From NCBI RefSeq assembly GCF_004138165.1, contig NZ_RYFF01000020.1, positions 33,982 to 93,567 of the forward strand: 59,586 nucleotides of DNA, in the 5' to 3' direction. This document shows positions 17,682 to 30,030 of the stretch, one piece after another. Every line of letters begins with the position of its first letter. Within the stretch, counting starts at the first letter, position 1. A program made the translations under genes and the position numbers. This DNA comes from Candidatus Chloroploca sp. Khr17 (GTDB lineage Bacteria > Chloroflexota > Chloroflexia > Chloroflexales > Chloroflexaceae). The notes under the pieces are model-generated. The model was not told where the DNA came from. It worked only from the letters and a program-made list of their open reading frames with translations, and did no database searches.

Positions 17682-17950
17682 TCCGCCAAACTTCCCTGTT
17701 TGCTCCCTCCACAAACTGAGCGGCGATGGGCTATCATAGACTCAATCCCAGCAAAACATTGCTTCCAGATCGCTCCTTGTTCGTGTTTTGGACACTCTTA
17801 TGCTCAGCGAGCCTCCCTGGTTGAGGTGCAACTGCCGCGCCTTCTGCCACTCCCCCTCCGTTGCCCAGGTGCCCCCTTGACAGGGCTTGCAGTTGCCCCA
17901 AACGCCAGCAGCAAGGCCCTGATGAGTACAGCGCAAAGGAATGGGTCAGC

Positions 17951-20134
17951 ATGGGAAGGGAGCAACCCCGTCGGTTCTCTGGTCGCACGTCGGGTCGTTT
18001 GATCGGGTTATGGCTGCTTGTGGTGCTGCTTGGGGGCGCGTTGGCCTTGCCCTCGCTCTTGGCTGCAGCGTCACGTCAGGCGAGTCTCGCCAGTTGTGCC
18101 CAGGTTCCCGTGGTCGAAGCGGGTACCGAGTTGGCGCAGTCTTTCGCCCAGACGGCCTCAGGGGCAGCCTGGGTTCGTTTGATGGTCGAACAGGATCAGC
18201 GCTATCGGCTCGAGGTGAGTGAGGCTGCCGCGCTGCAACTGAGTCTCTATGACCATTGTAGCCGTGGTGGCGCATCGTTTGCATTATCGAATGGCACGCT
18301 TGAGTTTACCGCGCTGCGTGATGGACCACTCTTTTTGCTTGCCGAGCGCAACGGGCGTGCTGTGGCGAGTGAGGCGAGTTTTGCCGTCAGTCTGGCCCCC
18401 GCCGCGCCGCATCGCCCGAACCTCGCCCAGAGTCAAGAGGTGCCCGAGGCGGTGCAACGCCGGGCGATTGAGTTTCTCGAAGAGTTGCGCGGCAGCGACC
18501 TTGCCCCGGAATGGGTCGAGGCTCGCCTGAGCCGCGATGTGCGCATCATCTATCGCCCTGATCTGCAAACTCCAGCCTATTACGAATTTAGTGTTGAAAA
18601 ACCAGGGCCAAATGGCTATGATCCGGCTGGGTTTATTCAGCTTGCCGCCGGCGAGCATGATTATCCGGTAGCGCACTGGGATGTCTCGGGCATGTCGCCG
18701 ACCCAGGAGTTGGCCGAAATTGCGCCGCTCGGGGCGAGACTGACCGAGTTTTACAAGCTCGATGCGCTCTCGTATGCCTCGGAGTATGAAGCGATCACGC
18801 CGGTGGGGATCAGCGCCGTGGTCGATGATGTCGTGAACCTTGGCGATCTGCCGCAACGCATTCCGGGTCTGAGCGATCTGCCGCAGGAAGAAGCCGAACT
18901 GGTGACCGAAGGCGTCGACTCGGAGGGCAATGTGGAGCGTGAAGGCCCCGAAGAATTGCCGCTGAGCGAACAGGAAGAGTGGCCTTCATGGGAAGCGTTG
19001 AAGAAGGAGTATGAGACCGCCTACGCACCGTTGCTTGCCGCCCAGACGCAACGGGTCGAAGAGACCTGGAAACTGGATCAGAACCTGCGCACCAACGGCG
19101 AGACGTTGATTCGTGGGGATCTCCGTGAGGTCTTTGGTTTGCCGAATCAGCCGATTACCGCGATCAATGTGACGGGCGACGGTACCACAGCGCAGTATCT
19201 CCAGCAGGAGCAACTGACCGAAGAGACGCAGTTGCGCGGTGTTCGGCTGGTGGTGCTTGATGAGCCCACCGATCCCGCAACGCTGCTGCCGGTCAATGTT
19301 GAAATTACTTATGGAAGCGGTCTTTCCGAGACAGTCAAGTATGCGATTGCCAACAGTCAGGCCCTTGGTCTGACGGGAAGCAATGTCGTCTATTTGCCGG
19401 TCGTCACGCAGGGTGGTGCTGGTACCGCTGAAGTTGCGCTGAGCCAGACCGGGGCAGAGCTCAACGGATGGGGCCCGTGGCAATACTGGTGGGCCGACGG
19501 CAATGCTGGCGGCATTCGCTACGGCCAGTTTACTACCGGCGGTTGTGCCAGCGGCTGTGGTGCCACGGCCTGGTCGATCCTCTTTGCTTGGGTTGACCGA
19601 CGGGCAGCCGAGAATCACCCGCTCTGGCGCAATCACTGGGGGCTCTACCGCGAAAATGGTGGCCTCGGCAGCAATGCTGTTGCACCGTTGAGCCAGGATA
19701 CCGGTGTGCGCAATATGACGAGCGAGATCCGTGGGCAGATAGGCACCTTCTGTATTGCCGGCAGTGGGGCGACCTGGCCGTGGCGGATGATTGATGCGTC
19801 CAAGTATGTGCGGCCACGGGCAAGCACCTCGTGGCGCATGAATACGCGCTATGATCCGACGGGGCTCTGCTGGTTTGGGGCATGTGACCGCAACCGCAAC
19901 CTTGCCCGTGATCAGATCATCAATCGGCGTGCGCCAGCCGTGGTTGGGACCGGCTGGTTGCAACATTACCCGGTCGCCTATGGCTACGCCCAGCGCCGCA
20001 AGCGCTCATGCTTCCTCTTTATCTGCAATACGAGCTATCAGCGTAGCTTCTATGTCAACAACGGCTGGTATGGCAACAATAACGGCTGGACAAGTGCCGA
20101 TGTCTGGTTTGCTGGGGTCTATAATAATCCGTGA
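17951..20134 (+). CDS. Secreted or membrane-anchored hypothetical protein of about 727 aa. The C-terminal region has a Cys/His-containing block reminiscent of papain-fold thiol peptidases. That assignment is speculative.
   Basis: Start placed at the ATG before a hydrophobic segment (GRLIGLWLLVVLLGGALALPSLLAAA). The ORF track's earlier M at 17861 lacks any signal-like features. C-terminal motif GGCASGCGATAWSILFAW ... HYPVAYGYA. Confidence 0.55.
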   Translation: MGREQPRRFSGRTSGRLIGLWLLVVLLGGALALPSLLAAASRQASLASCAQVPVVEAGTELAQSFAQTASGAAWVRLMVEQDQRYRLEVSEAAALQLSLYDHCSRGGASFALSNGTLEFTALRDGPLFLLAERNGRAVASEASFAVSLAPAAPHRPNLAQSQEVPEAVQRRAIEFLEELRGSDLAPEWVEARLSRDVRIIYRPDLQTPAYYEFSVEKPGPNGYDPAGFIQLAAGEHDYPVAHWDVSGMSPTQELAEIAPLGARLTEFYKLDALSYASEYEAITPVGISAVVDDVVNLGDLPQRIPGLSDLPQEEAELVTEGVDSEGNVEREGPEELPLSEQEEWPSWEALKKEYETAYAPLLAAQTQRVEETWKLDQNLRTNGETLIRGDLREVFGLPNQPITAINVTGDGTTAQYLQQEQLTEETQLRGVRLVVLDEPTDPATLLPVNVEITYGSGLSETVKYAIANSQALGLTGSNVVYLPVVTQGGAGTAEVALSQTGAELNGWGPWQYWWADGNAGGIRYGQFTTGGCASGCGATAWSILFAWVDRRAAENHPLWRNHWGLYRENGGLGSNAVAPLSQDTGVRNMTSEIRGQIGTFCIAGSGATWPWRMIDASKYVRPRASTSWRMNTRYDPTGLCWFGACDRNRNLARDQIINRRAPAVVGTGWLQHYPVAYGYAQRRKRSCFLFICNTSYQRSFYVNNGWYGNNNGWTSADVWFAGVYNNP

Positions 20135-20240: not shown

Positions 20241-23200
20241 ATGACACGGATGACCTCGTATGCGCTTGGGATCACGATGGTGGGCTTGATCGGCCTGCTG
20301 GTAAGCCTGGGAACCGCACTTGGGGCGGCATCGAGTCGTAGCGGGACTCAAGCCTTTGCGCTAGCCTCAGGTATACGAGCGCCCCTCTCTCCTGCCCCTA
20401 TCGGGACGCCCATCGCTGTATCGCACGGTGTGGCGGATACGACGTTGCCGGATCTGGTGATTACGGCGCTTAATCTGACGCCATCCGACCCTGGCGAGGG
20501 AGGTACTGCCGATATTGAGGTGGTGGTCAAAAATCAGGGCACCGCCGCAACGTCGGGCCGCTTCACTATCTATCTCTATGTTGAACCGACCGATGAACCG
20601 CCAACTGAGCAGACTGAGTATACGACCTTTGCTGGCTATGCGCTGACGTTGCCCCCCGGGGGGACGTTTAGCTTTACCCGGTTTGACCAGCAATTTACGC
20701 GCACACCGCCGACGGTCTATGCCTGGGTTGATCCGCCATGGGAAAATTTCATTACCGAGTTAAATGAAGCAAATAATCTCTTTCCACAGGTTGCTACTGG
20801 GGTTGATACCTTTGAAGATGATGATACGTGTGTTCAGGCGAAACCCATTCTAACCGATGGGACGCCACAGAGTCGCAATTTCTTTCCGAATTCGGGGCGT
20901 GAACGTGATGTTGATTGGGTGACGTTCAATGCGGTCGGTGGTGTCACCTATGCGGTCGAAGCGAGTCCGACCGGCGTTGATGCTGATCCAATTATTGAAC
21001 TCTACAGTACCTGTACAGGGGCACCGAGTTTTAGCAATAAAGTCATTACCGAATTCACTGCCCCTGCCGATGGCCCGATCTTTTTGCGGGTTCTTAATAA
21101 CAAGACCGACGCTGGGCCTGATCATCCTTACACGCTTCAGGTAACGAACGATAGCGCCTGCCCGAATTATTTCGAGCCAAATAATAGTGCCGCTACCGCT
21201 GGCGATTTGCCGCTTGCGACCGTGCAAACTCACAGCTTTTGCAAGCCTGCCGATCACGACTGGGTACGCCTGGCGGTTGAGGCGGGGGCCAGTTATCGTG
21301 TGGTTGCGACGAACGTCGGGCCACGAGCGAACGCGATCCTTGAACTCTATCGTACGCTTGAGGCGGCAACGAGTGCGGCAAGCGGGGCTACCATCGAGTT
21401 TATTGCGGCAGAAACCGGCCATGTCTATCTCAAAGCGGCCCAGGTTGAGCCTGAGGTTGCTGGTAGTGGCACTGAATATACCCTGCGCGCCGAGCGTCTG
21501 AGTGCCTCGGGGTGTACGCCGGATAGCTTTGAAGATGACGATACGCTTGAACAGGCCGGTTCAATTGCGGCTGATGGAACCACCCAGACGCGCAATGTCT
21601 GCCCTGAAGGCGATCTGGATTGGATCAGTTTTACGGCCAATGCGGGAACGACCTATACCATCGAGACGCTGAATCTGGGTGAAGCGGCTGATACCGTGAT
21701 GTGTCTGCATACCAGCACTGGTGAACAGATCGCGTGTGATGATGATGGCGGCACCGGCAAAGCCTCGCGCCTGAGCTTTGAACCGCCCGTGAATGGCAGC
21801 TATCTGTTGCAGATCAAGGATTTCTCGCCAACTGTTGCGGGTGATCTGACCAACTACGATCTCAAGGTGACACAACGCATTTGTCAGCCCGATGTCTTTG
21901 AGGATGATAATAGCCGTGATAGTGCGCGGGTCGTTGTTGTTGGAAGCGCAGCAACCAACCGCAACTTCTGCCCGGCAGGTGATGAAGACTGGATCGCCTT
22001 TGTCGCTGACGAAGGCAAAAATTATCTGGTCGATGCGATTGCGCTCGGTGCCGAAGCCGATACGCTCGTTGAGTTGTACGACGCCAACCAGGTCTTGCTC
22101 GCGCTCAATGACGATTTTACCCCCGGTACCAGTTCGCAGGTGAGTCTGGCCGAGGCTCGTGCAGGCAACTATTTTGTCCGGGTACGCCAGTATAATCCGA
22201 GCTACCAGGGCATCGGCACCGAATATTCGTTGCGTGTCCGCGAAGGTACTGCGGTACCTCCGCCGACGCCTTCCCCTGGCCCAACCCAGGGACCCTCGCA
22301 ACCCCCAGGGGAGACCGACGTGCGGACGTTGATCCTCTTCAACGAGACGCGTTTTGGGCAGATCCATAGTGTCGTCGAGGCCACTGAAGTTTTGACGCGC
22401 CTTCAGGCTTTAGCGCAACATCCGCAGGTGAGCGGCGAGCTTGTTTTGCTTGACGATAATGCCCAGGTTCAGGCTGCTTATGCCGCCTGGACGGCCGATC
22501 TTGGCAATGTCGAAAAAGCGAATCAGGTGACGGCCGCCATTCGTGCGGTTGTTCTGACCTATCAGCAACAGCGGAGTGGCCTCGCATATCTGGTGCTGGT
22601 TGGCGATGATCGGGCGCTTCCGATGCGGCGCATCTTCGATACCACCCCACGCTCATCAGAACGAACCTATCCGCATGTCAGTACGAACAATCCCGCCGGA
22701 GTGGCCCTCAAGGAGAACCACTATCTCACCGACGACTACTTTTCAGATCGCGAGCCAGCCGAGGTTAACGGGCGCGAGCTCTTCATCCCTGATCTCGCCA
22801 CCGGACGCCTAGTTGAAACGCCTGCCGAGATCATCGCTCAGCTCGACGCCTTTCTCGCACGCCAGCGCACCACAGTGACCAATACCTTGATCACTGGTTA
22901 CGATTTTGTGCAGGATCTTGCCGCGGCCGATTGCGACGACTGGCGAGCCGATCTGGGCATTCCCCGCATTGATTGCACGCTGATCGGCGATACCTGGACG
23001 GGCGATCAACTGCGTGCGTTGCAACCACGCACAACGTCGCCGTTTAATATTCAAATCTTCAATGGTCACGGAACCCACTATGCCCACGGGGTACCGGTGG
23101 GCAATGCGTTGCGCGCCAACGAGGTTGCCGAGGGCACCGCCGATCTACGTGGTGGCCTGATCTATTCGCCCGCCTGTCATGCTGGACTCAATTTGCCCCC

Positions 23201-24395
23201 GGCCAATGAAACGAACCCGCTTGATCTGCCGCAGGCCTTTGCCGGTCGCGGGGCCAGTTATATTGGCAATACCGGCTATGGCTGGGGTATGCGCAGTGCC
23301 GTCGGTCTCTCGGAACGCATGATCCGGCTCTATACGCAAGAACTGCTCAAAGGCACGCGGGCGAGCATGGGCCAGGCGCTGGCGACAGCAAAAAGCCTCT
23401 ATTTTCAGCAGGGCCAGTCTTTTTCCAGTTATGACGAAAAGGTGATGCAGCAACTGGTCTTTTATGGCTTGCCGATGTATGAAATCGAGACCGGGGCGGT
23501 GCTCTCGGGCCCGGGCAATGAATTCCCCGGGGTCGGGTTCACCCCGATCCTGCCGGGTGGCGGCGCCGCACTGATGAGCAATGGCTCAGTCTTGACCGGC
23601 TCGGTGGCGATTGACTTTCGCAACGCCGAGAATCTTGCGCTGTCAGAGACCGACGATGGCGGCTATTATGCGTTGAATGGTTCGGTGCAGACGGTACCGG
23701 GCTTGCCAGTGCAGCCGTTGCACTTTGGCAACGTGACGGCCCCCAACCTGGAGGCTCGCGGAGTCTTGTTGCTCGAGGCGACCTATCAGGAAGCCGAGCC
23801 GTTCGATCCGCTCATTGCGGCCCCCTTCAACGAATATCAACCCGATAATGAGCCTGGCGAGCTGGCCCAGGCCCGTGGGCTCTTCCCGCTTGTCCCAGTC
23901 TCGATCCAGCGCCATAACCAAACGTCGAGCCTGGTAACGCAACTTGGCCAGTATGATGCGGATCTGGGATCTTTGCGCCTGCTGAACGACGTCAATGCCG
24001 AAATCTACTACAGCCTCTCAGAGGAGCAGTTTTCACGCGAAACGACCGTCATTGACGGCATTACCCGTGTTGGCACTCCTCAGGTCGAAATTAAAGTTGG
24101 TACTGTTGAAGTTGCCGGGATCGAACGAGTTGTCTTGTCGTATATTCAAGACATCAACCAGGCCGCCCGCCAACTGCAATCAATGGATCTCACCTACGAT
24201 CCACGCTCACAAAAATGGGTTGGCTCGTTCCAGGGTGACACCAACTCGCGCTATCTCGTTCAGATCGTTGACAAGGCGGGCAAGATCACCGTTGCCGCCA
24301 ACAAAGGCCAGTATTACACTCCGGGCCTCGTGACTGCCGCACCGGATACGTCGTGTACCGGCCGTTGTGTGTTCCTCCCGCTGGTGAGTCGTTGA
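20241..24395 (+). CDS. Giant secreted protein. It has a signal peptide, a CARDB-like domain, five tandem PPC-like beta-sandwich domains, and a C-terminal clan CD (caspase/gingipain/CHAT-like) cysteine peptidase domain. Its C-terminus is ...CVFLPLVSR.
   Basis: AGGAGA Shine-Dalgarno sequence then ATG. The His-Gly ... Ala-Cys dyad is present (FNGHGTHYAHG ... GGLIYSPACHAG). The repeated PPC blocks each begin with FEDDDT/FEPNNS/FEDDNS. Confidence 0.8.
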   Translation: MTRMTSYALGITMVGLIGLLVSLGTALGAASSRSGTQAFALASGIRAPLSPAPIGTPIAVSHGVADTTLPDLVITALNLTPSDPGEGGTADIEVVVKNQGTAATSGRFTIYLYVEPTDEPPTEQTEYTTFAGYALTLPPGGTFSFTRFDQQFTRTPPTVYAWVDPPWENFITELNEANNLFPQVATGVDTFEDDDTCVQAKPILTDGTPQSRNFFPNSGRERDVDWVTFNAVGGVTYAVEASPTGVDADPIIELYSTCTGAPSFSNKVITEFTAPADGPIFLRVLNNKTDAGPDHPYTLQVTNDSACPNYFEPNNSAATAGDLPLATVQTHSFCKPADHDWVRLAVEAGASYRVVATNVGPRANAILELYRTLEAATSAASGATIEFIAAETGHVYLKAAQVEPEVAGSGTEYTLRAERLSASGCTPDSFEDDDTLEQAGSIAADGTTQTRNVCPEGDLDWISFTANAGTTYTIETLNLGEAADTVMCLHTSTGEQIACDDDGGTGKASRLSFEPPVNGSYLLQIKDFSPTVAGDLTNYDLKVTQRICQPDVFEDDNSRDSARVVVVGSAATNRNFCPAGDEDWIAFVADEGKNYLVDAIALGAEADTLVELYDANQVLLALNDDFTPGTSSQVSLAEARAGNYFVRVRQYNPSYQGIGTEYSLRVREGTAVPPPTPSPGPTQGPSQPPGETDVRTLILFNETRFGQIHSVVEATEVLTRLQALAQHPQVSGELVLLDDNAQVQAAYAAWTADLGNVEKANQVTAAIRAVVLTYQQQRSGLAYLVLVGDDRALPMRRIFDTTPRSSERTYPHVSTNNPAGVALKENHYLTDDYFSDREPAEVNGRELFIPDLATGRLVETPAEIIAQLDAFLARQRTTVTNTLITGYDFVQDLAAADCDDWRADLGIPRIDCTLIGDTWTGDQLRALQPRTTSPFNIQIFNGHGTHYAHGVPVGNALRANEVAEGTADLRGGLIYSPACHAGLNLPPANETNPLDLPQAFAGRGASYIGNTGYGWGMRSAVGLSERMIRLYTQELLKGTRASMGQALATAKSLYFQQGQSFSSYDEKVMQQLVFYGLPMYEIETGAVLSGPGNEFPGVGFTPILPGGGAALMSNGSVLTGSVAIDFRNAENLALSETDDGGYYALNGSVQTVPGLPVQPLHFGNVTAPNLEARGVLLLEATYQEAEPFDPLIAAPFNEYQPDNEPGELAQARGLFPLVPVSIQRHNQTSSLVTQLGQYDADLGSLRLLNDVNAEIYYSLSEEQFSRETTVIDGITRVGTPQVEIKVGTVEVAGIERVVLSYIQDINQAARQLQSMDLTYDPRSQKWVGSFQGDTNSRYLVQIVDKAGKITVAANKGQYYTPGLVTAAPDTSCTGRCVFLPLVSR

Positions 24396-24424
24396 CCTAA
24401 GCTTTGTGACAAAGGGTGACTGTT

Positions 24425-25918
24425 ATGCGTATGTTATTCACGGCCGTGCTGGTCTTTGCCGTCGTTGTGCTCGTTGCGACGACGCGCTATCCAGCCGAAG
24501 CTCAGGGAACCTTGAGCGCCAGTACCAGTTTCAACTACCAGGGTGTGCTGACGACTGATGGAGCACCAGCCAGTGGAAGCTTCGATCTGCGCTTCATTCT
24601 CTACACTGCTGCCACCGGCGGCTCGCAAGTTGGTGCGAGTCTTTTGCGCGAGGATGTCACGGTCAACCGTGGGCTCTTTGTGGTAGCGCTTGATTTTGGA
24701 GATGTCTTTGATGGCGACCCGCGTTTTCTCGAAATTGCGGTGCGCCAGGGTGGTTCCACGGGTGAGTTTACGATCCTTTCGCCCCGCCAGGAACTGACCA
24801 GCGTGCCGATGGCGATCTTTAGCCAGAATAGCGTCAACAGCCAGAATAGCGTCAACAGCCAGAATAGTGTCACGAGCGAAAGCACCAATGCTTTGCGTGA
24901 GCAACCCATCGCCGAGACTGCGCCAACCAGCGGCCAGGTCTTGAAGTGGAACGGGACAGCCTGGTCACCGGCGGCTGACAATAATACAACCTACAGCGCT
25001 AGTACCGGGTTATCGCTTGCAGGCACCACCTTTAGTGTCAACTTTGGTGGCAATGGCAGCTCGAGCCTCATAGCCCGGGCGGATCACACCCATCTTGGCT
25101 CATTGTGGCGCGGTGATGTTGGGTTCACCGCGCTGTGGGTCGAAAACCAGTCGACGGTGAGTGGCGCTTCGGGGGTGGTCGGCATCAGTGTCGCGGCGAA
25201 CGGCTTGAGTGGGCGGAGCACGTCGGGCAACGGCGTGAATGCGGTCAGCACGTCGGGGAATGGGGTGAATGCCAGCAGTTCCACAGGTACCGGTGTGCGT
25301 GGCGTCAGTTCGGCTGACAATAGCGTCGGGGTCTGGGGTCGCAATAGTTCCGGGGGATGGGGTGGCTATTTCGAGGGTCGTGTCACCGTGGTGGGCACCT
25401 TGAGCAAGTCGGGCGGCTCGTTCTTGATTGATCATCCGCTCGATCCGGCCAATCGCTATTTGAGTCACTCGTTTGTCGAGTCGCCCGATATGATGAATGT
25501 CTACAATGGCAATGTCGTGCTTGATGCCAACGGACGCGCCGAGGTCACGTTGCCCGACTATTTCGAGGCGCTCAATATCGAGTACCGCTATCAGTTGACG
25601 CCGATTGGCGGCGCGGCCCCCAATCTGCATATTGCCGAAGAGATCGTTGACAACCACTTTGTGATTGCCGGGGGTTCAGCGGGGCTCAAGGTCTCGTGGC
25701 AGGTGACGGGCATTCGCAATGACCCGTGGGCACGCGACAACCGGATCATTGTTGAGCAGGAAAAGATCCCGGCCGAACAGGGCACCTTCCTCTATCCAGG
25801 GGCGAATCCTGACGTGACAGTACAGCCGCAAACAACGCCTGGCGAGCCAGGGCCAATGGTCCCGGCTTCATCTGGTACGACGGTAGATGTCCCTGCGCCT
25901 GCTGATGTGTCCCGCTAG
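24425..25918 (+). CDS. Secreted hypothetical protein with short peptide repeats (SQNSVN x3; SGNGVNA x2) and a conserved-looking C-terminal domain of unknown function.
   Basis: N-terminal signal MRMLFTAVLVFAVVVLVATTRYPAEA. An 18-bp DNA tandem repeat lies at 24826-24879. No recognisable catalytic motifs. Confidence 0.6.
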   Translation: MRMLFTAVLVFAVVVLVATTRYPAEAQGTLSASTSFNYQGVLTTDGAPASGSFDLRFILYTAATGGSQVGASLLREDVTVNRGLFVVALDFGDVFDGDPRFLEIAVRQGGSTGEFTILSPRQELTSVPMAIFSQNSVNSQNSVNSQNSVTSESTNALREQPIAETAPTSGQVLKWNGTAWSPAADNNTTYSASTGLSLAGTTFSVNFGGNGSSSLIARADHTHLGSLWRGDVGFTALWVENQSTVSGASGVVGISVAANGLSGRSTSGNGVNAVSTSGNGVNASSSTGTGVRGVSSADNSVGVWGRNSSGGWGGYFEGRVTVVGTLSKSGGSFLIDHPLDPANRYLSHSFVESPDMMNVYNGNVVLDANGRAEVTLPDYFEALNIEYRYQLTPIGGAAPNLHIAEEIVDNHFVIAGGSAGLKVSWQVTGIRNDPWARDNRIIVEQEKIPAEQGTFLYPGANPDVTVQPQTTPGEPGPMVPASSGTTVDVPAPADVSR

Positions 25919-25937
25919 CGATGGAAAGGCAAGCCTC

Positions 25938-28157
25938 ATGCAACGCACATCGCTTTTCGGGGTGATTATTGGTGGCTTGTTGCTCGTGCTGACGATCACG
26001 ATGGTGGCGGCCCAGGCCGGTTTTGGCTTGCCGTGGGTAGCGGTCAGTGGTGGCGGCGGCACGAGTAGCAGCGGCTCGTTTGCGGTTCAAGGTTCGGTTG
26101 CATATGACAGTAGCCCACCCCTGAGCAGTGGCGTCTACACGCTGACCGGCGGTTTCTGGCCCGGCCTCAATGACGAGGCCCCGATGTTGAGTGCCGTCGA
26201 GCCCACGGCAGCGCGCAGTGTGGTGCCAGTTGCGTTGGCGCTGACGGGCAACTATTTTCAAGTTGGGGCGACCGTGACGCTCGGCACGACGGCGCTGGAA
26301 AATGTGACGACGATCAGCGCCTCGCGCATCGAAGCGGTGATCCCCGCCGGGGTAGCTGCCGGGGTCTACGCGCTTGAGGTGCGCAACCCCGACGGGCAGA
26401 GTGTCACGCTTGATGATGCCTTTACCGTCGAATTGCCCAACCTGCGCATTTTGCAAGTCCAACCTGATCAGGGTGCCAATCAGCAACCCGTCGAGATTGT
26501 CATTGCCGGCGAGGATTTCTCGCCAGCGGCTGAGGTTCGGCTTGGTGAAACGCCGCTGACCGTCATCCACGATAGCACGACCCGCATGCGCGCAACGGTG
26601 CCGGCTGGACTTGACCCGCAGGCCTATCCATTGACCGTGATCACGCCCGGGGTCGCTCAGGCAACGCTTGAGAATGCCTATACCGTCGTGGTACAGGCTT
26701 CAGCGGGGGCCGACAATTTTGAGCCAGACAATACCTGTGCGACCGCAAAAACGATTAGCATTGACGGCGTCGCCCAGGCGCGCACGTTTCATCGTACCGA
26801 AGATGTTGACTGGGTCGCCTTCAGCGCCGAAGCAGGACGGCGCTATCTACTGGTAGCTCGCCCACCCGCAGGTTCCCCCGCCAGTCTTGCGGTCGAACTG
26901 TATGATCGGTGCGAGAGCGACCCAACAGGTGGGCAGAATAACACCTTTAGCAACGGCGTCAGCATCTCGTTTGATGCTGCAATCACAGGCACGATCTACC
27001 TCAAGGTGATCAACCGCGATCCAAGCATCTTCGGATCAGAGGTCGCGTACGACCTCTCGGTGCGCGATCTCACGACGATCACCACCGCTGAGGCGCGAGG
27101 TGCAGTGATCATTGTTGCTGGCAAGTTGCGCGACAATGATGATGTGCAACAGCAGATCCACGGGGTCGCACGCAATGCCTATCAACTCTTCCGCGCCAGC
27201 GGGTATGACGACGATCATATTCAGGTACTGGCGACTGATCCAACGCTGGATGGGTACGATGCCCCGGCCACGCTCACGAACCTGCGCAACGCGATCACCA
27301 GCTGGGCGCGTGAACGGGTCGTCTCGAGTAGCCCCCTGACCATCTACATGGTTGGCCATGGTGACGAAAATCGTTTCTATGTTGATGAGACTGCGGGGCA
27401 GCAGCGTCTCGAACCCGAGCAACTCAACGAGTGGCTGAATCAACTCGAAACAGCCCGCCCCGGACTCAAGGTCAATCTGATCATCGAAGCCTGTTTCGCC
27501 GGCAGCTTCATTCTCGACCCGGGCAGCCTCAGCAAAGTCGGGCGGGTGGTCATCGCCTCATCGCCTGCCGACAACGTGGCCTATGCCTCGCCCGAGGGGG
27601 CCTATTTCTCGGATACCTTCCTTGCGTCACTCGCCTCATACAGTCTCTACGAGAGCTTTCTTGACGGCAAAGCGATTGCCCGTGCGACCTATCCCGACCA
27701 GATCGCCTGGCTGGACGATAACGGGAATCGGGTGCCGAACGAAGCCGCCGACGGGCAAGAAGCGCAGCAGCGGAGTTTTGCGCTTGCAACCCTGAGTGAC
27801 GATCTCAACTTCCGCCCGCTCATTGTCGAAGCGACCTTTGTGCGCACCGAGGGCAGCAATGGTACCATCAGTGCGGTGGTACGCGACGATCATGGCGTCG
27901 AAGAGGTCTTTGCCCAGATCTTCCCACCCTCATACCAACCACCCGATCCACAGTCAGGGCTGGTCACGGTAGCCGTACCCTTTGTCACCCTGACCCCGCT
28001 GGGCAATGATCGGTACAGCGTAAGCTACGACGGCTTCACCGAAGAAGGTGACTATCGCCTTGTCATCCAGGCCCGCGACAATGACGGATCCAATGCCTTG
28101 CCCGCTATTGCCACCACGGGCGGGCAGCGGGTCTATTTGCCATTGACGATCAGGTAG
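25938..28157 (+). CDS. Secreted legumain-like (family C13, clan CD) cysteine peptidase. It has a signal peptide, two IPT/TIG-like domains, a PPC domain, and a C-terminal Ig-like region. Its C-terminus is ...VYLPLTIR.
   Basis: Legumain signature blocks IYMVGHGDENRFYVDE (His) and NLIIEACFAGSF (Cys; compare legumain EACESGS). PPC block NFEPDNTCATAKTI...DVDWVAFSAEAGRRYLL. Confidence 0.75.
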   Translation: MQRTSLFGVIIGGLLLVLTITMVAAQAGFGLPWVAVSGGGGTSSSGSFAVQGSVAYDSSPPLSSGVYTLTGGFWPGLNDEAPMLSAVEPTAARSVVPVALALTGNYFQVGATVTLGTTALENVTTISASRIEAVIPAGVAAGVYALEVRNPDGQSVTLDDAFTVELPNLRILQVQPDQGANQQPVEIVIAGEDFSPAAEVRLGETPLTVIHDSTTRMRATVPAGLDPQAYPLTVITPGVAQATLENAYTVVVQASAGADNFEPDNTCATAKTISIDGVAQARTFHRTEDVDWVAFSAEAGRRYLLVARPPAGSPASLAVELYDRCESDPTGGQNNTFSNGVSISFDAAITGTIYLKVINRDPSIFGSEVAYDLSVRDLTTITTAEARGAVIIVAGKLRDNDDVQQQIHGVARNAYQLFRASGYDDDHIQVLATDPTLDGYDAPATLTNLRNAITSWARERVVSSSPLTIYMVGHGDENRFYVDETAGQQRLEPEQLNEWLNQLETARPGLKVNLIIEACFAGSFILDPGSLSKVGRVVIASSPADNVAYASPEGAYFSDTFLASLASYSLYESFLDGKAIARATYPDQIAWLDDNGNRVPNEAADGQEAQQRSFALATLSDDLNFRPLIVEATFVRTEGSNGTISAVVRDDHGVEEVFAQIFPPSYQPPDPQSGLVTVAVPFVTLTPLGNDRYSVSYDGFTEEGDYRLVIQARDNDGSNALPAIATTGGQRVYLPLTIR

Positions 28158-28193: not shown

Positions 28194-28299
28194 TATAATA
28201 GAGCCATGGCGTTCGCACCCCTTACGCGGGGATGGAAAAGGTGGTATGTGTGTGCTCGTGGCTCTGCCACGAGCACGCACATACCACCTTCACAATGAT

Positions 28300-30030
28300 A
28301 TGTTCTATGCGATTGGCGTGCTTGTTCGGGCACGTTTGCAGATCACACGCAATAATCTCATCCGAAGCTCGCTCGGCAACAAAATTGGCCTGGCTTTCCT
28401 CTTGGTGTTAGGCAGCCTGGCGATGTTGGGGCTCTATAGTTTCACCCGTTTTACGGTGAGCCTTTTACGCGATCCTGAGTTCGCGGCGCTTTTGCGTGAG
28501 GCCGCCGAGACGACCCCCGGGTTGCCTACGGCGATCGCGCCGTTGCTGGCGGCTGTGCCGAGCATGATTATGCTCATAGCGCTGACCCTGCTGATCTTTT
28601 CCAGTTTTACCAGTCTGCTCAATTCCCTCTATTTGGCGGGTGATCTTGATATGTTGCTGGTCGCGCCGGTGCCGATGCGGGCGGTCTTTGTGGTGAAGTT
28701 TTTTGGTGGTTTGCTCACGCAGTATCTCATCCTCTTTGTGCTGCTCGCCCCCGTGCTCGTTGGCTATGGGCATGGGATGGCCTACGGGTTTTTCTATCTC
28801 GTCAGTGTCTTGGTAGCCTTGCTCGTGGTGCCTTTTTTGCCGGCGGGGTTGGGGGCGATGCTGGTGATGGGTGTGGTTCGCATCATCCCCGCCCGTCGCG
28901 CCCGCGAGTTGGTGAGCATCCTGGGCGGGCTCATCGGGGTGACGTTCTTTCTCTTGTCGCAGTTCAGTCGACAATTCATCGCTTCAGTTGCTGGCCCCGA
29001 TACACTTGCCCTGCTGTTGCTCCTTGATATGCCGCTGTTGCCCTCGACCTGGGCAGGCCGTGCGCTCGTGGCGTCCGGCGAAGGTCAGTGGCTGACTCTG
29101 CTCGGGTATGGTTCGCTCTTTCTGGGCACGTCGCTGGCTGTTTTTGCCGCCTGTCTGGTGCTGGCTGAACGACTCTACTATGATGGCTGGAGCAACCTCG
29201 CCAATCAGGGGGGCAAGCTACGGGCGCGCAAGGCGATCGAGCGGAACGCCTGGCTGCCGGGGCGCACCCTGGTCGCGCGGCTCCTCCCGAGTGAAGCCCG
29301 GGCGCTGCTCGCCAAAGATCTGCGGCTCTTTTTTCGCGATTTGCGCAATCTACAGGCGCTCATCTTTCCGCTTGCGCTCGCCGGGATCTGGACGTTCCAG
29401 GCGCTGACCACGCCAAATACGCTTGAGTCCCCCGCCGTCGCGTGGGCGCTCCCATTTGTGCAACTGCTCAGTGCTGGCATTGCTTTTTTCATCTGTCTCA
29501 GCATTTCAAGCGTGCTTGCCGGTACCGGGATCAGCCGCGAGGGCAAGGCCTTCTGGCTCCTCAAACTTGCCCCGATCAGCGCCAGCAGGCTCTTGCTTGG
29601 CAAGATGACCCTGGCCTTCCTGCCCTTTCCGGTGATCGGGACGGCCTTTCTGTTGATTCTGGCGCTGGTTGGGCATCAATCGCCTGGCATCTTCGTGCAG
29701 CAGTGGGTTCTCTTGATGCTCGTAGGGCTCGGCTGCGCCGCCTTTGGCATCGGCCTCGGCGCGGCGTTCCCCCGGCTCGACTGGGAAAATCCACAGCAAC
29801 AGGCGACCTGGCAGAGCGGGTGCCTCAGCACGATCTTCTACCCGCTCTACCTCGGGTTGATGCTGCTGCTCGTCGCGGGTAGCGGGTCGCTCGGTGTGGT
29901 GCTTGGCGGCGGCGTCGCCGGCTTTGGCATCCAGCTCACTGGCTGGTCGGCTGCCGCGATCGTTACGCTGGGTGTGATCTGGAGTGGTCTGAAGATCGGG
30001 GTAAAAGGGTTAGACCGGATCGAATTGTAG
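28300..30030 (+). CDS. Polytopic integral membrane protein of about 577 aa with at least 10 predicted TM helices. It is possibly an ABC-2 or putative-ABC-exporter-type permease. No ATPase partner is adjacent.
   Basis: Long hydrophobic helices throughout. Start set at the ATG after the leader hairpin; the ORF track starts at 28246. Confidence 0.6.
   Translation: MFYAIGVLVRARLQITRNNLIRSSLGNKIGLAFLLVLGSLAMLGLYSFTRFTVSLLRDPEFAALLREAAETTPGLPTAIAPLLAAVPSMIMLIALTLLIFSSFTSLLNSLYLAGDLDMLLVAPVPMRAVFVVKFFGGLLTQYLILFVLLAPVLVGYGHGMAYGFFYLVSVLVALLVVPFLPAGLGAMLVMGVVRIIPARRARELVSILGGLIGVTFFLLSQFSRQFIASVAGPDTLALLLLLDMPLLPSTWAGRALVASGEGQWLTLLGYGSLFLGTSLAVFAACLVLAERLYYDGWSNLANQGGKLRARKAIERNAWLPGRTLVARLLPSEARALLAKDLRLFFRDLRNLQALIFPLALAGIWTFQALTTPNTLESPAVAWALPFVQLLSAGIAFFICLSISSVLAGTGISREGKAFWLLKLAPISASRLLLGKMTLAFLPFPVIGTAFLLILALVGHQSPGIFVQQWVLLMLVGLGCAAFGIGLGAAFPRLDWENPQQQATWQSGCLSTIFYPLYLGLMLLLVAGSGSLGVVLGGGVAGFGIQLTGWSAAAIVTLGVIWSGLKIGVKGLDRIEL

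Follow-up and report, generated by a model that had tools for sequence, protein, structure and literature searches.

Organization of the locus

The window (the whole stretch of DNA analyzed, 59,586 nucleotides) comes from a Chloroploca species (Chloroflexota), the host of the two protease genes described here. Both genes, p1 and p3, are intact open reading frames (ORFs) and lie among the following genes:

17861–20134, forward strand: upstream neighbor, 757 aa
20241–24395, forward strand: p1, 1384-aa multi-domain protein, predicted to be secreted, with a C25 (gingipain-type) catalytic domain
24416–25918, forward strand: p2, 500 aa, with a hydrophobic segment at the N-terminus and no tail; its jackhmmer homologs lie beside the C13 gene
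25887–28157, forward strand: p3, 756-aa protein, predicted to be secreted, with a C13 (legumain-type) catalytic domain
28246–30030, forward strand: downstream neighbor, 594-aa polytopic membrane protein (PF16949 ABC_tran_2, E = 6e-45)

The p2 ORF, the third within positions 20241–28157, was absent from the original prediction. It gave no match in Pfam, NCBIfam, or PDB. Three rounds of jackhmmer placed its homologs next to the C13 gene at 25 related loci, frequently as a tandem pair, and p2 is a conserved partner of both peptidase genes. Its overlap with p3 would vanish if the true start of p3 is Met18 at nt 25938, as is possible. The 757-aa neighbor shows synteny with the peptidase genes in Chloroploca, in umkhey_bin13, and at locus L054. 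It contains an internal VYLPVVTQ (nt 19388–19411) upstream of a domain that has Cys and His residues conserved (invariant C562, C566-G-A-T-A-W, and H702), and its match to Pfam C10 is weak (E = 0.14). The ABC_tran_2 protein adjoins the C13 gene in only two of 72 loci (L005 and L006), both from Chloroploca.

Domain structure of p1

20241–20333, forward strand: predicted N-terminal signal peptide, about aa 1–31, MTRMTSYALGITMVGLIGLLVSLGTALGAAS, read from the sequence
20448–20783, forward strand: CARDB domain, aa 70–181 (Pfam PF07705; E = 4e-7; 30.6 bits, cut-off 22.7)
20802–22235, forward strand: four PPC-like modules, aa ~188–665 (Pfam PPC, E = 3e-14, two stretches)
22317–23495, forward strand: C25 catalytic domain, aa 693–1085, two subdomains
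23067–23069, forward strand: catalytic His943, in NGHGTHY (from aa 941), just after model strand 245–249
23175–23177, forward strand: catalytic Cys979, in YSPACHAG (from aa 975), just after model strand 281–283
23496–24365, forward strand: C-terminal β-sandwich domains, aa 1086–1375, all-β in the model with high confidence
24369–24392, forward strand: C-terminal tail VFLPLVSR, from the sequence

By eye, the putative signal peptide runs from a basic start through a hydrophobic core to an Ala-rich end. Each PPC-like module opens with FE[DP][DN][DN], and the pattern F-E-D/P-D/N ... DxDW ... occurs four times in the translation. A search of the PDB with the p1 sequence gave no match. The isolated domain matched Pfam Peptidase_C25 with 46.3 bits (cut-off 23; E = 4.7e-12), the alignment covering positions 40–364 of the 374-position profile. 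The family comprises 4305 representative clusters at E ≤ 1e-3, with many members of 1330–1450 aa, and the C25 orthologs are uniform in architecture and length (~1320–1480 aa); the β-sandwich domains are conserved in the homologs. The position of His943 is His in 152 of 161 relatives (94%) and that of Cys979 is Cys in 151 of 162 (93%), with ~6–7% of C25 relatives devoid of one or the other. Around the dyad, 146 of 161 relatives also have the second His of p1 (H946), and H980, G982, and N984 are conserved in 142, 158, and 143 of 162, respectively. The tail, preceded by C-x3-C, is unstructured and of low confidence in the monomer model (pLDDT 40–60).

Domain structure of p3

26184–26696, forward strand: two TIG/IPT domains, aa ~100–270 (Pfam PF01833, E = 1.1e-12, two stretches)
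26709–27071, forward strand: PPC-like module, aa 275–395, ADNFEPDN..., with the sequence pattern of the four p1 modules
27084–27806, forward strand: C13 catalytic domain, aa ~400–640 (Pfam PF01650)
27357–27359, forward strand: catalytic His491, followed by Gly492, in VGHGDEN (from aa 489), aligned with legumain His148
27492–27494, forward strand: catalytic Cys536, in IEACFAGSF (from aa 533), aligned with legumain IEAC189ESGS
27819–28121, forward strand: C-terminal β-sandwich, aa ~645–745 (model strands 251–337)
28131–28154, forward strand: C-terminal tail VYLPLTIR, from the sequence

The TIG/IPT region also matches NCBIfam CoaZ_rpt_PGGG (E = 6e-14), the PPC-like module is located identically in the homologs, and the β-sandwich is conserved in the relatives; the accessory domains noted originally are real, namely CARDB and four PPC-like modules in p1, and two TIG and one PPC-like module in p3. 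The match of p3 to Pfam Peptidase_C13 (PF01650; E = 3e-7 to 1e-8; 30.6–35.2 bits, cut-off 22.8) is restricted to positions 102–210 of the 258-position profile. The family profile found metacaspase (1.8e-4) and legumain (5e-4) among PDB sequences, and the model of the catalytic domain (pLDDT 81.4) retrieved exclusively C13 structures as its top 50 Foldseek matches (E down to 5e-12). His491 is conserved in 124 of 125 relatives (99%) and Gly492 in all 125; Cys536, in the family context I-E-A-C-x-[SA]-G-S-F, is kept in 125 of 126 (99%), together with E534 (121) and A535 (125). The protein has a conserved DDNG..DG loop and departs from the family consensus at several near-invariant sites: D490G, N423Q, S538A, and an Arg in place of the family's Asn that is aligned with legumain Asn42.

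Catalytic dyads

In clan CD peptidases, the catalytic His and Cys follow consecutive strands (PMC4357240), and both residues do so in the models of p1 and p3. The motif pairs noticed originally are present in both ORFs, and the assignment of p1 and p3 to clan CD holds: Pfam C25 and C13, respectively, are matched above cut-off, the models agree, and the residues are conserved. Models for C11, C14, and CHAT found no match to either domain at E ≤ 10. The description of p1 as gingipain/CHAT-like is supported for gingipain (C25) and not for CHAT. The legumain-like character of p3 is borne out by the alignment of its His and Cys motifs with legumain, but the predicted His-Gly arrangement is a family feature only for p3; in the p1 family, 137 of 161 relatives have Ala or Phe directly after the catalytic His, and just 7 have Gly.

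It could be argued that p1 and p3 are catalytically dead binding proteins that use the caspase fold as a mere scaffold, as some relatives have lost the Cys (P0006, for example, has Thr), a small fraction of C25 relatives lack a dyad residue, and p3 deviates at a few conserved sites. Both residues are, however, kept in p1, p3, their Chloroploca orthologs, and more than 93% of the relatives, making such pseudo-peptidases very improbable. Orthologs of p1 in Ca. Chloroploca asiatica and Ca. C. mongolica share 91–93% amino-acid identity with both catalytic motifs intact, and that of p3 in Ca. C. asiatica shares 93%. Protein identity among the Chloroploca orthologs is 91–93% at ~89–92% DNA identity, and this sequence comparison indicates that p1 and p3 are under purifying selection within Chloroploca.

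The C-terminal tail

The tails of p1 and p3 both fit the eight-residue pattern [VIL][YF]LP..x[RK]. The original prediction regarded it as unusual that both enzymes carry the motif; such tails are in fact the rule in both families, found at the C-terminus in 95 of 124 relatives for C13 and in 78 of 148 for C25. Other C25 relatives, some also within Chloroflexota, have dockerin-like or hydrophobic-plus-basic C-termini. Arg or Lys stands just before the tail in 35% of cases against a background of 5.7%, an enrichment compatible with cutting by a C25 enzyme specific for Arg/Lys. Two families make up most of the sample, so that it is not independent.

A role in processing the C-terminal motif was the main idea of the original prediction. 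As sorting enzymes, one or both might recognize the tail on an exported protein, cleave it off, and attach the protein to an acceptor at the cell surface. PorU (C25) acts in this way in type IX secretion, keeping its own sorting domain, as does GPI8 (C13) in GPI anchoring, and both families include natural transpeptidases. Consistent with such sorting, the structural matches include PorU (6za2) and GPI transamidase (7wld_K), the p3 relatives among the matches listed are almost all from Chloroflexota and mostly tailed, and the C13 and C25 genes are linked across the phylum, often among other tail-bearing genes. The basic residue at position -1 of the tail also fits gingipain-type P1 specificity (PMC4357240). 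However, C13 genes can be present in many copies (MAG P01_B01_bin.121 has 20 loci and bin.57 has 10), C25 relatives in the same phylum bear other C-termini, and at the syntenic locus of the related Oscillochloridaceae MAG umkhey_bin13 both catalytic domains are gone, with a tail-ending remnant persisting. Moreover, p1 and p3 have no membrane anchor beyond the signal peptide, and p1 is far nearer to gingipains than to PorU. Known sortase-type signals also look different from the tail, which is only eight residues long, lacks a transmembrane segment, and in two thirds of cases stops exactly at the final Arg/Lys. Taken together, a sorting role appears rather improbable.

Conserved gene neighborhood

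Linkage was surveyed in 72 C13 loci from 35 Chloroflexota assemblies. As these loci were picked for being the best matches to p3, the counts represent the p3-like subgroup rather than C13 paralogs in general. A C25 gene of ~1350 aa lies within 10 kb of the C13 gene, always on the same strand, in 17 loci (17 of 35 assemblies); the two are directly adjacent in 11 of these, and L077 presents the reverse arrangement. DUF6345 genes occur in 12 related loci, and the same-strand linkage of C13, C25, p2-like, and DUF6345 genes spans Chloroflexia, Anaerolineae, and Caldilineae. The partners vary by lineage, the window having the 757-aa and ABC_tran_2 proteins and no DUF6345. Although the C25 and C13 enzyme families are already known, their pairing as a gene neighborhood conserved across the phylum Chloroflexota is new; a literature search turned up nothing on the Chloroflexota C13 homologs, on their tail, or on how they are linked to C25 genes.

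A pair conserved phylum-wide exceeds what is expected of ordinary nutritional proteases and makes a dedicated role conceivable, with maturation of tail-bearing proteins among the options. The pair may process the products of its own module (p2-like, DUF6345, and 757-aa proteins) so that a structure outside the cell is assembled or activated, in which the short hydrophobic tail could serve as a donor strand by analogy with type V pilins, whose trimming by Arg-gingipain allows the C-terminal strand to insert into the next subunit. The same-strand linkage, the uniform C25 orthologs, the unstructured tail in the monomer model, and the basic residues before it agree with this proposal, but the p2-like and DUF6345 proteins have no Pfam function or PDB match, the former have no tail, and the partners differ between lineages. 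We consider dedicated maturation unlikely.

Proposed role of p1 and p3

The observations above establish the families of p1 and p3, the integrity and conservation of their catalytic dyads, the conserved linkage of the genes, and purifying selection within Chloroploca. On balance, we slightly favor the interpretation that p1 and p3 act as client exoproteases and together make up a conserved proteolytic module outside the cell. The phylum-wide conservation of the pair, the basic residue ahead of the tail, and the departures of p3 from its family consensus weigh against this reading. Both proteins start with a hydrophobic leader; each would be made with a predicted Sec signal peptide and exported as a catalytically competent cysteine endopeptidase, the CARDB, PPC, and TIG domains probably acting as binding or spacer modules. 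In both, β-sandwich domains and then the lineage's eight-residue tail succeed the catalytic domain, and the enzymes may be retained on the surface through this tail, as clients of the tail-reading system rather than that system itself. Together with p2-like proteins and, in other lineages, DUF6345 proteins, they would constitute a module that is probably co-transcribed. It is possible that p1 and p3 co-operate, one activating the other or both cutting the same substrate, for instance their partners in the module, and that the flanking domains exert zymogen control.

Comparison with known systems

The gingipains RgpB and Kgp of Porphyromonas gingivalis (MEROPS family C25) share with p1 the His-then-Cys dyad after consecutive strands, the β-sandwich domains after the catalytic domain, and a secreted, multi-domain organization with a lineage-specific C-terminal sorting element. 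They differ in sequence (11–14% identity) and host phylum, in having an N-terminal pro-domain where p1 has CARDB and four PPC modules, and in ending with a ~80-residue type IX C-terminal domain instead of the eight-residue YLP..R tail; the Ala/Phe usual after the His and the conserved H946 and H980 also set the p1 family apart. PorU, the type IX secretion sortase, is much more distant from p1 than gingipains, and no PorV, PorZ, or PorQ partners were seen.

The fold of p3 resembles that of mature legumain (TM 0.62–0.66, Foldseek) and GPI transamidase subunit K (Foldseek, 2.9e-9), with D/G-H-G and I-E-A-C-x-S-G-S motifs aligned to legumain His148 and Cys189, whereas sequence identity to legumain/asparaginyl endopeptidases, peptide asparaginyl ligases, and GPI8 (MEROPS family C13) is ~15%. 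TIG and PPC modules precede the catalytic domain of p3, and a β-sandwich and YLP..R tail replace the LSAM-type C-terminal pro-domain of legumains. The conserved DDNG..DG loop is a further difference. No clear counterpart of the Arg-His pair in the S1 pocket of legumain is seen in p3, nor is there an equivalent of Asn42, so that specificity for Asn is doubtful. The Chloroflexota proteins that NCBI annotates by family name only, as "C13 family peptidase" or "caspase family protein", are direct homologs of p3 (37–96% identity over the catalytic and C-terminal part) and share its tail.

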